Positions 352-38,530 of a DNA stretch of 64,000 bases are shown in pieces. Below the pieces are notes generated by a model, which did no database searches, was not told where the DNA came from, and saw only the letters and a list, made by a program, of their open reading frames with translations. The stretch is from Escherichia coli. GTDB taxonomy: Bacteria; Pseudomonadota; Gammaproteobacteria; Enterobacterales; Enterobacteriaceae. Each line of letters opens with the position of its first letter. The stretch's first letter is position 1. Both the position numbers and the translations under genes were made by a program. The stretch lies in assembly GCF_046105845.1 (NCBI RefSeq), contig NZ_CP151004.1; one strand, given 5' to 3'.

Positions 352-427
352 TGGCTCCTCTGACTGGACTCGAACCAGTGACATACGGATTAACAGTCCG
401 CCGTTCTACCGACTGAACTACAGAGGA
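352..427 (-). tRNA. asnV: tRNA-Asn (GUU)
   Basis: Exact reverse complement of the 76-nt E. coli tRNA-Asn sequence including CCA end; position next to nac. Confidence 0.93.
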
Positions 428-1771: not shown

Positions 1772-2722
1772 GTGAATTTCCAACAAATAAAGATAATCCG
1801 CGAGGCTGCACGTCAGGATTACAACCTGACAGAGGTTGCGAATATGCTTTTTACCTCACAGTCCGGCGTCAGCCGTCATATTCGGGAACTGGAGGATGAA
1901 CTTGGCATCGAAATATTTGTTCGACGAGGTAAGCGACTGCTGGGCATGACTGAACCGGGCAAAGCATTACTGGTCATTGCAGAACGTATTCTGAATGAAG
2001 CCAGTAATGTTCGTCGGCTTGCAGACCTGTTTACCAACGATACGTCTGGCGTTCTCACTATTGCAACGACGCATACTCAGGCACGTTATAGCTTGCCAGA
2101 GGTCATTAAAGCTTTTCGCGAACTTTTCCCGGAGGTTCGGCTGGAGCTAATCCAGGGTACGCCACAGGAAATTGCGACGTTGTTGCAAAATGGCGAAGCT
2201 GATATTGGTATCGCCAGCGAGCGTTTGAGTAATGACCCGCAGCTCGTCGCCTTCCCGTGGTTTCGTTGGCACCATAGTTTGCTTGTTCCACTCGATCATC
2301 CCTTGACGCAAATTACACCGTTGACGCTGGAATCAATAGCGAAGTGGCCGTTAATTACTTACCGACAGGGGATTACGGGGCGCTCACGTATTGATGACGC
2401 ATTTGTCCGCAAAGGTTTGCTGGTAGATATTGTATTAAGTGCGCAGGATTCTGATGTCATTAAAACCTATGTTGCTCTTGGGTTGGGGATTGGATTAGTT
2501 GCCGAACAATCCAGCGGCGAACAAGAGGAAGAGAATTTAATCCGTCTTGATACGCGGCATCTTTTCGATGCCAATACTGTATGGTTGGGACTGAAGCGAG
2601 GGCAACTTCAACGTAACTATGTCTGGCGCTTTCTGGAACTTTGTAATGCAGGACTGTCAGTTGAGGATATCAAGCGCCAGGTGATGGAGAACAGTGAAGA
2701 GGAAATTGATTATCAGATATAG
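1772..2722 (+). CDS. cbl: LysR-family regulator Cbl (sulfonate-sulfur utilisation), GTG start, 316 aa
   Basis: ORF 1772..2722; protein MNFQQIKIIREAARQDYNLTEVANMLFTSQSGVSRHIRELE recognised as Cbl; follows nac as in E. coli. Confidence 0.9.
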   Translation: MNFQQIKIIREAARQDYNLTEVANMLFTSQSGVSRHIRELEDELGIEIFVRRGKRLLGMTEPGKALLVIAERILNEASNVRRLADLFTNDTSGVLTIATTHTQARYSLPEVIKAFRELFPEVRLELIQGTPQEIATLLQNGEADIGIASERLSNDPQLVAFPWFRWHHSLLVPLDHPLTQITPLTLESIAKWPLITYRQGITGRSRIDDAFVRKGLLVDIVLSAQDSDVIKTYVALGLGIGLVAEQSSGEQEEENLIRLDTRHLFDANTVWLGLKRGQLQRNYVWRFLELCNAGLSVEDIKRQVMENSEEEIDYQI

Positions 2723-2759: not shown

Positions 2760-2835
2760 TGGCTCCTCTGACTGGACTCGAACCAGTGACATACGGATTA
2801 ACAGTCCGCCGTTCTACCGACTGAACTACAGAGGA
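2760..2835 (-). tRNA. asnU: tRNA-Asn (GUU)
   Basis: Exact reverse complement of the 76-nt tRNA-Asn; lies between cbl and yeeO. Confidence 0.93.
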
Positions 2836-4583: not shown

Positions 4584-4659
4584 TCCTCTGTAGTTCAGTC
4601 GGTAGAACGGCGGACTGTTAATCCGTATGTCACTGGTTCGAGTCCAGTCAGAGGAGCCA
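4584..4659 (+). tRNA. asnW: tRNA-Asn (GUU)
   Basis: Exact match to the 76-nt tRNA-Asn on the + strand; inverted relative to asnU. Confidence 0.93.
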
Positions 4660-19907: not shown

Positions 19908-19983
19908 TGGCTCCTCTGACTGGACTCGAACCAGTGACATACGGATTAACAGTCCGCCGTTCTACCGACTGAACTACAGAGGA
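19908..19983 (-). tRNA. asnT: tRNA-Asn (GUU)
   Basis: Exact reverse complement of the 76-nt tRNA-Asn; about 24 nt of its 5' flank are identical to the asnV 5' flank. Confidence 0.93.
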
Positions 19984-28513: not shown

Positions 28514-29707
28514 TTAGAACTGGTAGACTAAGCCCACAGCAACGATATCATCGGTAGCGATGCCGTTAGCTTCGTAGAAGTCGTCGTCGTTGTCCAGCAG
28601 GTTGATTTTGTAATCAACATAGGTGGACATATTTTTGTTGAAGTAGTAGGTCGCACCGACTTCAACGTATTTAACCAGATCTTTATTGGTGTAACGCGGA
28701 TCGCCATTACCGTCATGAGCCCAACCGCCTAAATCCTTCCCTTTAGATTGCAGGTAAGCGATGGACGGGCGCAGGCCGAAGTCGAACTGATACTGAGCAA
28801 CAACTTCAAAGTTTTGGGTTTTGTTCGCAATACCACCTCTGTCAATGTCGTTATTGTCTTTTCCGCTGCCATATGCAGTCATATTACGTGTTTCTGCATA
28901 CATTGCCGCTAAATAGACATTATTCGCATCATATTTAGCACCGACTGTCCATGCTTCAGCTGTTTCACCACCAGCATATTTATTCGAGCGTTGCTCACCT
29001 AAACCAGTAGCACGTTGGTTATCAGTACGGTCAGAGTTTGAATATGCAGCCCCGAGGCTTAACCCGAAGTCAAAGTCATAGGAAGTGGACATACCGAAAC
29101 CGTCACCATTTTCTTTAGACAGTTTACGATTATTACCATTACCAGAACCTTCTTGATCCCAAAGCCCACCCGATCCTTCATTATTACCCTGATATTGCAG
29201 AGCAAAGTTCAGGCCATCGACCTGACCAAAGAAGCCATTGTTACGGTAGGTTGCAACACCATTAGCACGACCGTTCAGGAAGTTGTCGGCACCAGCATAG
29301 GTATCGCCACCAAATTCTGGCAGCATATCGGTCCATGCTTCGATGTCATATACGACACCGTAGTTACGACCATAGTCGAAAGTACCATTCTGACCAAAGC
29401 CTAAACCTGCAAATGCCAGACGCGTTGCGGTATTACCTTTGTCGCTTTCAGGACCGTTTGCGCCAATGTTAAATTCCCACTGACCATAACCAGTGAATTG
29501 GTCAGCGATCTGAGTTTCACCTTTGAAACCGATACGGGCATATGACATGTCGCCATCGCTGCCAGCATCATCAGAGAAGTAGTGCAGGCCCGCTACTTTT
29601 CCGTACAAATCCAGTTTATTACCATCTTTATTATAGACTTCAGCCGCATTTGCTGCGCCAGCAACTAATAACGCCGGGACCAGCATTGCCAGAACTTTTC
29701 TTTTCAT
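28514..29707 (-). CDS. yedS: OmpC/OmpF-family general porin YedS, apparently intact (about 397 aa); I recall it as a split pseudogene in K-12
   Basis: ORF 28514..29737; start placed at [21 protein letters not shown] (signal peptide); aromatic-rich beta-strand composition ending in a terminal F typical of porins. Confidence 0.8.
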
Positions 29708-30018
29708 TATGTATTCCCTTGTGATTATAATCTTCATGAATATATCAATAAGTGCCGTTATCCAAAAAAAAGCACATTTGGATACTATTCTATGAAGTTC
29801 ATTTTATTTTAAAGATTACATGTAACAAATGTATTTAAAAGATTTCAAAATGTTTCTAATCTATTTAATATAATTCAAAATTATGAATTCTAAATATAAA
29901 TATTCATGAAAATTATAAATGTATATCAATATGTTATGAGTTGAGCGGAAACATAGGAGGTATCAATGATTGTTGCGCCAAACGGCTGGTGTGATCACGC
30001 GCACATTAATGAAGACAT

Positions 30019-30110
30019 AAAAAAAGCCGGCATCATGCCGGCCCAAAAAATATAAACAAGACGATAAAAGGCTAATAACGGAGGCATCATGACACAGAAT
30101 AATAAAAAGG
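30019..30110 (-). ncRNA. rseX: Candidate small RNA, probably RseX, ending in a strong intrinsic terminator
   Basis: Minus-strand hairpin gccggcatgatgccggc followed by seven T's with no protein gene upstream on that strand; I recall RseX mapping to the yedR-yedS intergenic region; 5' end approximate. Confidence 0.4.
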
Positions 30111-30272
30111 TATAATTGTAATCAGTGCTAATATATTGATTGAATGAATTAATAAAGCCGATATCAAAGATAAATAAAATCGCTCAAAACGATTTATCCT
30201 GTACTCACTGCCGTTGCGCAAAAATTATCTATTTGTTCAAAAAATGATTGAGTCTTGACTGGCTCATCCAAT

Positions 30273-30638
30273 GTGGAAAAATGTGACTTTTATCACATAA
30301 TAGTACTAAGTCTGAATTTTCCGGGTTATCTCAAAATGGAATACGGTTCGACAAAGATGGAAGAGAGACTCTCTCGCAGCCCTGGTGGCAAATTGGCTTT
30401 GTGGGCTTTCTATACATGGTGTGGCTATTTCGTCTGGGCAATGGCGCGTTACATCTGGGTGATGAGCCGGATCCCCGATGCCCCCGTGTCGGGATTTGAA
30501 AGCGATTTAGGCTCTACCGCGGGAAAGTGGTTAGGGGCACTGGTCGGCTTTTTATTTATGGCTCTGGTCGGGGCATTGTTAGGCAGCATTGCCTGGTACA
30601 CCCGACCTCGTCCCGCACGTAGCAGACGCTATGAATAA
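30273..30638 (+). CDS. yedR: Small inner-membrane protein YedR (121 aa if the GTG start is used)
   Basis: ORF 30255..30638 with two hydrophobic segments; start codon uncertain (TTG 30255, GTG 30273 or ATG 30336). Confidence 0.65.
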   Translation: MEKCDFYHIIVLSLNFPGYLKMEYGSTKMEERLSRSPGGKLALWAFYTWCGYFVWAMARYIWVMSRIPDAPVSGFESDLGSTAGKWLGALVGFLFMALVGALLGSIAWYTRPRPARSRRYE

Positions 30639-38264: not shown

Positions 38265-38443
38265 TTACCAGGATGATTCTTAAAACAGCACAAATTATCA
38301 AAGATGATTTTTTCGGGAGCGATCCCGTTGACGCCAGAGCCACCAAGGGGTGACGCGCGTCACATTTCTATTCATAAGTAGCGTTAATCATTCATATCAC
38401 GAATATTTTCTTGTCAGCGAAAAAAATTGCGGATAAGGTGATG

Positions 38444-38530
38444 AACACATCAGATTTCCTGGTGTAACGAATTTTTTAAGTGCTTCTTGCTTAAGCAAGT
38501 TTCATCCCGACCCCTCAGGGTCGGGATTTT
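38444..38530 (+). ncRNA. dsrA: DsrA small regulatory RNA (rpoS activator, hns antisilencer)
   Basis: Sequence aacacatcagatttcctggtgtaacgaattttttaagtgcttcttgcttaagcaagtttcatcccgacccctcagggtcgggattttttt matches DsrA as I recall it, including the terminator; lies between yedP and yodD. Confidence 0.85.

Follow-up and report, generated by a model that had tools for sequence, protein, structure and literature searches.

MicC and MicF are trans-acting, Hfq-dependent small RNAs (sRNAs) that mask the ribosome-binding sites (RBSs) of porins and are encoded beside ompN and ompC, respectively. RseX groups functionally with these two porin-adjacent Hfq sRNAs, and its targets are shared with MicA and RybB. 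Like MicC and MicF, it is encoded beside a different porin gene (yedS in this case) and is predicted to pair with the RBSs of ompC and ompA. Unlike them, it is co-oriented with and upstream of its neighbour porin, where theirs are divergent, it is silenced by H-NS instead of being controlled by OmpR or sigma-E, and it bears no sequence relationship to either. With MicA and RybB it has in common the targets ompA and ompC and the same outcome, relief of envelope stress, but these two are sigma-E-dependent and differ from it in sequence and seed, whereas RseX lies outside the sigma-E regulon, no RseX signal having been seen upon RpoE induction in Salmonella (PMC1804206).

The gene described here is the same as rseX of K-12 (b4603). 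The property by which RseX was identified is that, in multicopy, it suppresses the essentiality of RseP. Its repression of ompA and ompC depends on Hfq, and reporters of ompA, fimB and ihfB are all repressed by it (PMC8313858). The RNA is undetectable in wild-type K-12, and bands of ~91 and ~75 nt appear only without H-NS, which binds the region and, with StpA, silences it in K-12, as judged by Northern blots and RNA-seq (PMC8313858). The gene is variably lost within E. coli and Shigella (PMC3318445). We have analyzed the locus in a 64,000-nucleotide stretch of an E. coli genome (the window). RseX itself, its targets, the H-NS silencing and the two CRP sites that flank the gene are already published, and the Hfq dependence, the target repression, the silencing and the 5' end are taken here from the K-12 literature. 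Identity, boundaries, terminator, synteny, conservation pattern and predicted duplexes are established in the present analysis, from which we infer the nucleotides that pair.

Identity and distribution of rseX

The sRNA gene and the two protein genes on either side of it are the following:

30019..30108, minus strand: rseX, coding for the 90-nt Hfq-dependent sRNA RseX, by Rfam RF01401 and alignment to b4603
28514..29707, minus strand: yedS, an OmpS1/OmpC-like porin gene, intact, 311 nt downstream of the RseX 3' end and co-oriented with it
30336..30638, plus strand: drpB (formerly yedR), on the opposite side of the intergenic region from yedS

The minus strand of 30019..30108 is rseX. The Rfam model RF01401 matched it with 99.0 bits (the gathering score is 50) over model positions 1-94 of 94, i.e., at full length. 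In the MG1655 record (NC_000913.3) the ncRNA rseX, b4603, occupies 2033649..2033739, between drpB (yedR) and the yedS pseudogene, and in both genomes the gene is flanked alike by drpB, yedJ, yedS and hchA. The base-by-base alignment with b4603, over 91 nt, contained a single substitution and a single indel. The former is at nt 26, a C here (loop GCCUCC) and a U in K-12 (GCUUCC); the latter is an extra T in K-12, where the RNA ends in U8 and measures 91 nt against U7 and 90 nt in the window. The gene, its flanks and its terminator are otherwise the same, and the remaining difference is that yedS is a pseudogene in K-12. The original prediction, that a minus-strand sRNA in the gap between yedS and yedR is RseX, is borne out by score, orthology and location, although the interval proposed for it ended at 30114 and the 5' end of the RNA is at 30108. 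We found no evidence against this identity. Three other Rfam families matched at the locus below their thresholds, STnc430 on the plus strand (25.4 bits against 47), RyhB (21.7 against 55) and suhB/mmgR (16.8 against 41); their scores were driven by the terminator hairpin and the three identities were rejected.

The intergenic region that bears rseX measures 598 bp with 30% GC, and 4908 of the 5426 complete E. coli genomes have it. Outside K-12, PGAP annotates no feature at the position of rseX in the genomes examined, and because of this the gene looks unannotated there. A pattern scan, with one genome per species, recovered the RseX core also in Escherichia albertii, Escherichia whittamii, two further Escherichia species, a divergent E. 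coli and Citrobacter amalonaticus. All six of these homologues exceed the RF01401 threshold (70.9-95.2 bits), and the order yedJ-drpB-rseX-porin is common to them wherever the contig reaches far enough.

The open reading frame of yedS in the window spans 28514..29737, with the actual start at the ATG at 29707, and gave full-length tblastn alignments to 8 loci; besides being a pseudogene in K-12, it is frameshifted in an O157:H7 genome. Regulation of yedS by RseX was considered and rejected, the complementarity to the yedS RBS (-7.3 kcal/mol) lying at 63% of the background.

Promoter, terminator and silencing of the transcript

The features at the two ends of the transcription unit, the promoter element being a candidate, are the following:

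30115..30120, minus strand: candidate -10 hexamer of rseX, TACAAT, at -12..-7 from the annotated 5' end, from sequence and alignment
30045..30057, minus strand: A/U-rich single-stranded stretch GUUUAUAUUUUUU (nt 52-64), directly 5' of the terminator, read from the sequence and the fold
30019..30044, minus strand: Rho-independent terminator, stem GGCCGGCA / UGCCGGCU, loop UGA, with the U7 tail at 30025..30019

The terminator scan detected GGGCCGGCATGATGCCGGCTT followed by the T-run on the minus strand (30044..30024), with 9 pairs, 6 of them G-C, and a loop of 3; the plus strand of 30019..30042 reads AAAAAAA-GCCGGCATCATGCCGGC. The hairpin is present in both the MFE and the centroid folds and has an energy of -14.3 kcal/mol. 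Strong terminators, defined as hairpins of -12 kcal/mol or lower abutting a T-run of at least 6, number 7 in the window, whereas 20 composition-preserving block shuffles had 0.2 on average, confirming the strong minus-strand intrinsic terminator with T7 that had been noticed at first. A looser consensus scan found 1 terminator where 0.9 were expected, which is not above chance by itself. Another of the 7 strong terminators of the window belongs to DsrA. The claim that this terminator serves no protein gene was also correct; it is an orphan, because the only minus-strand open reading frames upstream of it have 31 and 44 codons. Its stem is invariant among ten distinct RNAs from Escherichia species and Citrobacter, with the exception of one compensatory change from G-C to A-U in Citrobacter. 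The length of the T-run differs among E. coli (6, 7 or 8); T6 occurs in 265 genomes, and the T7:T8 ratio is known only from 9 sampled E. coli loci. As a whole the RNA does not fold more stably than its shuffles (z = -1.28).

An A/U-rich stretch followed by a terminator and a U-tail is the layout of the Hfq-binding module in Hfq-dependent sRNAs. By analogy, nt 52-64, the terminator hairpin and the U-tail are presumed to be the Hfq-binding 3' module of RseX.

The shorter of the two upstream frames (30090..29995) raises the question of whether RseX could be a dual-function RNA that encodes a peptide on its own strand, like SgrS does with SgrT, since its 31 codons begin with an AUG at RseX nt 19-21. 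No SD stands upstream of this AUG (UUAUUCUGUGUC-AUG), the frame crosses the terminator and reaches its stop codon (29995..29997) only past the 3' end of the transcript at 30019, so that the RNA would be a non-stop message. In addition, the T-run polymorphism moves the end of the frame. We give practically no credit to a peptide encoded in RseX.

At the other end of the gene, the -35 is poor and for this reason the rseX promoter escaped the consensus scan, while a sigma-70 promoter is backed by 5' RACE in K-12 (PMC8313858). Transcription would proceed leftwards from this sigma-70-type promoter, with the -10 TACAAT at 30120..30115, and end at the terminator of the gene itself. The GC content over 29700..30300 falls to 21-38% (200-bp windows) between flanks of ~50%, which fits the published silencing by H-NS and StpA. 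Lying in such an AT-rich, H-NS-silenced island between drpB and yedS, RseX would normally be almost absent.

Conservation and predicted target pairing

Three elements of the RNA were compared among 14 aligned loci, and then among 10 distinct RNAs (Escherichia species and Citrobacter):

30058..30079, minus strand: invariant block GUUAUUAGCCUUUUAUCGUCUU (nt 30-51), the predicted target-pairing (seed) region for ompA and ompC
30080..30085, minus strand: hypervariable loop GCCUCC (nt 24-29), the complement of which is the GGAGG before mini-ORF2 (see next section)
30071..30095, minus strand: weak 5' hairpin (nt 14-38), from the Rfam consensus structure and the MFE fold

Two segments, nt 12-23 and nt 29-49 (CGUUAUUAGCCUUUUAUCGUC), are invariant in the 10 distinct sequences, and their flanks vary. 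The most variable positions of the whole RNA are nt 24-28, and the loop hexamer that includes them takes 7 forms among the 14 loci (GCCUCC, GCUUCC, ACUUAC, AACUCC, AACCGC, AGCCCC and CACACC). Within E. coli, we surveyed the loop with queries designed so that each megablast seed must cover nt 26. The allele CCUCC was found in 2218 and CUUCC, that of K-12, in 1933 of the 5426 genomes, i.e., ~45% and ~39% of those with the locus. No covariation was detected in the 5' hairpin, where the sole variable pair is broken in 2 of the 10 sequences; one terminator pair excepted, the paired columns of the RNA are too invariant for a covariation signal.

The possible targets lie outside the window, and the ompA and ompC sequences used were those of K-12. 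Douchin 2006 and Guillier 2006 are said to be the primary papers proposing RseX pairing. The predicted duplexes were referred to a background of 3000 random 45-mers from the window and 49 open reading frame starts, with the following energies and proportions of random 45-mers that were at least as good:

Block nt 30-51 with the ompA RBS: -17.2 kcal/mol, 0.40%
Block nt 30-51 with the ompC RBS: -18.2 kcal/mol, 0.33%
Loop nt 19-34, window allele, with the ompA RBS: -13.6 kcal/mol, 3.7%
Loop nt 19-34, window allele, with the ompC RBS: -10.1 kcal/mol, 25%
Loop nt 19-34, K-12 allele, with the ompA RBS: -10.9 kcal/mol, 11.7%
Loop nt 19-34, K-12 allele, with the ompC RBS: -7.4 kcal/mol, 54%

The energy of the block was equalled at 1 of the 49 open reading frame starts in the case of ompA and at none of the 49 in that of ompC. 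Among the length-limited duplexes, nt 37-51 pair with ompA -23..-7, across the GAGG (-17.5 kcal/mol), and an unbroken run of 14 pairs joins nt 30-44 to ompC -15..+1 (-16.6 kcal/mol). Unrestricted RNAduplex predictions, with RseX nt 1-64 against long leaders, gave p = 0.13 for ompA, 0.18 for ompC and 0.04 for yedS when compared with shuffled sRNA. These duplexes were long and loop-ridden, and they were set aside and replaced by the length-limited windows and the genomic background. With p = 0.13-0.18 for the two targets, the seed assignment therefore rests on the length-limited duplexes and on conservation.

The first reading of this sequence had drawn attention to the CCUCC as an anti-Shine-Dalgarno element of the RNA. 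It was right in that GCCUCC is present at nt 24-29 and in that RseX acts on ribosome-binding regions, but CCUCC does not appear to be the functional element. It falls in the variable loop, it forms the weaker duplexes, and it is absent from K-12, the strain in which all the RseX function experiments were done and which has CUUCC; for these reasons the invariant block nt 30-51 was taken as the seed. Sequence comparison thus suggests that the seed is the block and not the CCUCC loop, and that the loop would be at most a modulator, C26 strengthening its predicted duplex with the ompA SD by 2.7 kcal/mol relative to U26. In the K-12 study, the predicted ompA site is the fifth of a series of numbered probe regions along RseX, and region 8 is also named (PMC8313858). 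A fifth region would tentatively correspond to a position in the middle of the RNA, in agreement with the block.

When RseX is made, nt 30-51 would pair with the translation-initiation regions of ompA and ompC (also those of fimB and ihfB, according to PMC8313858), so that ribosome binding would be blocked and less OmpA and OmpC produced, while nt 52-64, the terminator and the U-tail would serve as the presumed Hfq module. We are highly confident in this explanation as a whole, the pairing through nt 30-51 being predicted and the Hfq module presumed.

Antisense mini-ORFs and CRP operators

On the plus strand, the same segment has two short open reading frames preceded by SD sequences, and several of the features of the intergenic region overlap them:

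29966..30055, plus strand: mini-ORF1, 29 aa (MIVAPNGWCDHAHINEDIKKAGIMPAQKI*), with AGGAGG as SD at 29955..29960 and a spacing of 5 nt to the ATG; not considered a conserved gene
29990..30005: CRP operator TGTGATCACGCGCACA, by pattern match, within the mini-ORF1 codons WCDHAH and 13 nt past the RseX U-tail
30089..30115, plus strand: mini-ORF2, 8 aa (MTQNNKKV*), antisense to the RseX 5' end, with GGAGG at 30080..30084 and a spacing of 4 nt to the ATG; not considered a gene
30089..30116, plus strand: sigma-70-like match ATGACA-16-TATAAT, 11 of 12 consensus positions, coinciding with the mini-ORF2 codons
30282..30297: second CRP core TGTGACTTTTATCACA, perfect, by pattern match, beside the mapped drpB promoter

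Both frames had been noticed before, and they do exist with GGAGG-type SDs 5 and 4 nt upstream, the second being at 30089..30115 and not at 30088..30114. We have weighed whether one or both encode functional small proteins antisense to RseX. The canonical spacing of the two SDs in this strain would favour it, as would the retention of the ATG and 8 codons of mini-ORF2 in all the Escherichia loci, the fact that the automatic annotation of many genomes includes mini-ORF1 as a hypothetical protein, and the coincidence of 2 of the 7 GGAGG-N4-8-ATG motifs of the window within 135 bp. However, these 7 motifs compare with 7.16 expected, so that an SD followed by an ATG is no more frequent than chance. 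Neither mini-ORF is present in the MG1655 and PGAP annotations, and in the supplement of one K-12 initiation-profiling study there is no small ORF at 20336xx/20337xx and none for rseX, yedS or yedR.

Mini-ORF1 is not conserved as a reading frame. Within E. coli it has 29, 36 or 41 aa and its last third is read in three frames, because the T-run of the terminator is 6, 7 or 8 long. In E. whittamii it is cut to 7 aa and in Citrobacter it is absent. The AGGAGG that precedes it is restricted to the lineage of the window, being found only there and in its nearest relative; the same position reads GGGGG or GGGAG in K-12, O157 and others, and no SD was present in the other species compared. In sequence databases it appears only as the automatic calls mentioned above, and none of its variants gave a match in Pfam or NCBIfam. 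The consensus scan did not find any plus-strand promoter-like site upstream of it within the intergenic region. What is conserved in its middle is the CRP operator, with half-sites that are invariant and a spacer that varies across Escherichia species, and its 3' part is the RseX terminator read from the other strand. The operator is a published CRP site. In K-12, Footprint-seq located a CRP site centred at 2033766, equivalent to 29990..30005, with a Kd of 4.9 nM and assigned to yedS (PMC12871828), and ChIP-seq detected CRP bound in vivo at the equivalent site of ETEC H10407 (PMC4287617).

The sequence of mini-ORF2 is fully accounted for by the RseX 5' end, which is conserved, and the core promoter, both read on the opposite strand, and every substitution that it has accumulated is non-synonymous. 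Its SD is the variable loop of RseX seen from the opposite strand, and the position reads GGAGG, GGAAG (in K-12), GTAAG, GCGGT or GGGGC at different loci; E. albertii and E. whittamii lack any SD-like sequence there. The small-protein alternative offered with the original prediction therefore fails at the conservation of frame, stop codon and SD, and we consider it very improbable that either frame encodes a functional protein.

The sigma-70-like match that coincides with mini-ORF2 could instead be a functional plus-strand promoter, bidirectional with that of rseX, the two starts being ~15 bp apart; such a promoter may coexist with RseX. It is the sole match of at least 11/12 on both strands of the 64 kb, such a match was seen in 6% of the shuffles of the intergenic region, and both hexamers are conserved in Escherichia species. 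This conservation is confounded, though, the -35 being the conserved RseX GUGUCAU and the TATAAT overlapping the rseX -10 on the opposite strand (TATAATTGTA). Moreover, the region is bound by H-NS (PMC8313858), a clone without 30089..30116 still expresses drpB (PMC7648144), and we found no published start site near 30123. We regard a functional promoter at this site as unlikely. That it might be the promoter of drpB was rejected, as this one has been mapped ~180 bp downstream, between the old GTG-1 and ATG-22 (PMC7648144). The second CRP core, which is beside it, corresponds to the K-12 Footprint-seq site centred at 2033477, with a Kd of 1.9 nM (PMC12871828).

Taken together, nothing biologically new is established at the rseX locus by these data. 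Its main use is as a calibration point: a strong terminator without a protein gene, in an AT-rich intergenic region, led correctly to a real sRNA, which the RefSeq/PGAP annotation omits from the non-K-12 genomes examined. The antisense mini-ORFs with their SDs can be put down to the functional DNA that they overlap, i.e., the terminator, the CRP operator and the RseX 5' end with its promoter. A small added value is that conservation and duplexes indicate nt 30-51 over the CCUCC loop as the seed.

Source tracking of E. coli has made use of the intergenic region between yedS and yedR as a host-informative marker, and rseX is nowhere mentioned in the study concerned (PMC11267920). The loop substitutions, the T6/T7/T8 tails and the CRP-spacer variants could underlie the reported host-informative SNPs. 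As a rather speculative reading, which we think improbable, the drpB-yedS island might be a porin-exchange module, co-silenced by H-NS and wired to CRP, with the loop, tail and operator alleles tuning its output. If this were true, de-silencing in strains where yedS is intact would produce YedS and RseX together, and RseX would clear OmpC and OmpA from the envelope.

CRP operators flanking rseX

The sRNA gene rseX lies on the minus strand between yedS and drpB (yedR), and we found matches to the CRP operator on both of its sides. The CRP-core matches of the window, three in number, are the following:

29990..30005, CRP operator by pattern match (TGTGATCACGCGCACA), 13 nt beyond the RseX U-tail
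30282..30297, perfect CRP core (TGTGACTTTTATCACA), 39-54 nt upstream of the drpB ATG (30336)
38349..38364, third CRP-core match (GGTGACGCGCGTCACA), just upstream of DsrA

Two of the three fall within the single 600-bp yedS-drpB intergenic region. The one downstream of the rseX terminator corresponds to a K-12 CRP Footprint-seq site (centre 2033766, Kd 4.9 nM; PMC12871828) and also to an in vivo CRP ChIP-seq site in ETEC (PMC4287617). Among Escherichia species the spacer of this site varies between invariant half-sites, and the site is missing in Citrobacter (C. amalonaticus S646). It may serve the promoter of yedS, that of rseX or an antisense one. The second match falls inside the interval of the mapped drpB promoter and is likewise a K-12 Footprint-seq CRP site (centre 2033477, Kd 1.9 nM; PMC12871828). 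The third has a published counterpart, the yedP/dsrA CRP site. Besides rseX, the window carries the following RNA genes:

38444..38529, plus strand, DsrA (Rfam 105 bits), with a strong terminator of its own
355..427, 2763..2835, 4584..4656 and 19911..19983, four tRNA genes of 73 nt each with identical Rfam scores
20975..21061, one tRNA gene of 87 nt

The five tRNA genes are scattered over the first third of the window.

At the 5' end of rseX there is a promoter-like sequence reading in the opposite direction:

30089..30120 region, plus strand, ATGACA-16-TATAAT, an 11/12 consensus match

This is the sole match of at least 11/12 in the 64-kb window, and its -10 overlaps the rseX -10 on the opposite strand (TATAATTGTA). 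Judged by sequence, the overlapping -10 elements may form a bidirectional promoter whose two start sites would be separated by about 15 bp. We also considered this match as the drpB promoter and ruled it out, as it differs from the mapped one.

Variation of the neighborhood

The gene on one side of rseX is strongly variable among strains:

28514..29707, minus strand, yedS, an intact OmpS1-like porin gene (397 aa) named 'porin OmpC' by PGAP

K-12 carries yedS as a pseudogene, and one O157:H7 genome has a frameshifted copy. The window copy shares 84-91% identity with other Escherichia loci, 94% and 85% with K-12 (in two pieces) and 64% with Citrobacter. On the other side, the annotation of drpB records a frameshift in an O157:H7 genome (L009 2121..2401) and an internal stop in strain 200177 (L014 2118..2399), indicating that this flanking cell-division gene is also decaying in some lineages.

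The same drpB-porin gap is occupied in Citrobacter by an RseX homologue:

L004 (C. amalonaticus S646) 1944..2040, plus strand, RseX homologue, Rfam 70.9 bits

Its 5' end and loop differ and a 7-nt insertion precedes the terminator, whose closing pair is A-U, a compensatory change. The invariant GUUAUUAGCCUUUUAUCGUC is kept.

An sRNA unannotated in non-K-12 genomes, with a polymorphic tail

In all the non-K-12 genomes examined (RefSeq E. coli, L002 and L009-L014), rseX is left unannotated by PGAP, while these copies score about 90-99 bits with the Rfam model. The sRNA is therefore invisible in the standard annotation of about 4900 genomes. In published E. coli source tracking the yedS-yedR intergenic region (29738..30335) is a host-informative marker (PMC11267920); rseX is nowhere mentioned in that paper. 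The host-informative SNPs may be located in the RseX loop, the RseX tail or the CRP operators.

On the RseX strand there is also an open reading frame:

29995..30090, minus strand, 31-codon ORF, AUG at nt 19-21 of RseX, continuing through the terminator

By its sequence it is probably meaningless, because it has no SD and no stop codon inside the RseX transcript.

The U-tail of the terminator (30019..30025) is polymorphic in length within E. coli. T6 was found in at least 265 genomes; at individual loci (the window, L001, L002 and L009-L014), T7 is carried by the window, WP4 and E69 and T8 by K-12, O157, A30, THO-003 and VTB, BLAST masking of the T-run precluding a genome-wide T7:T8 ratio. This variation in length could influence termination or Hfq binding.
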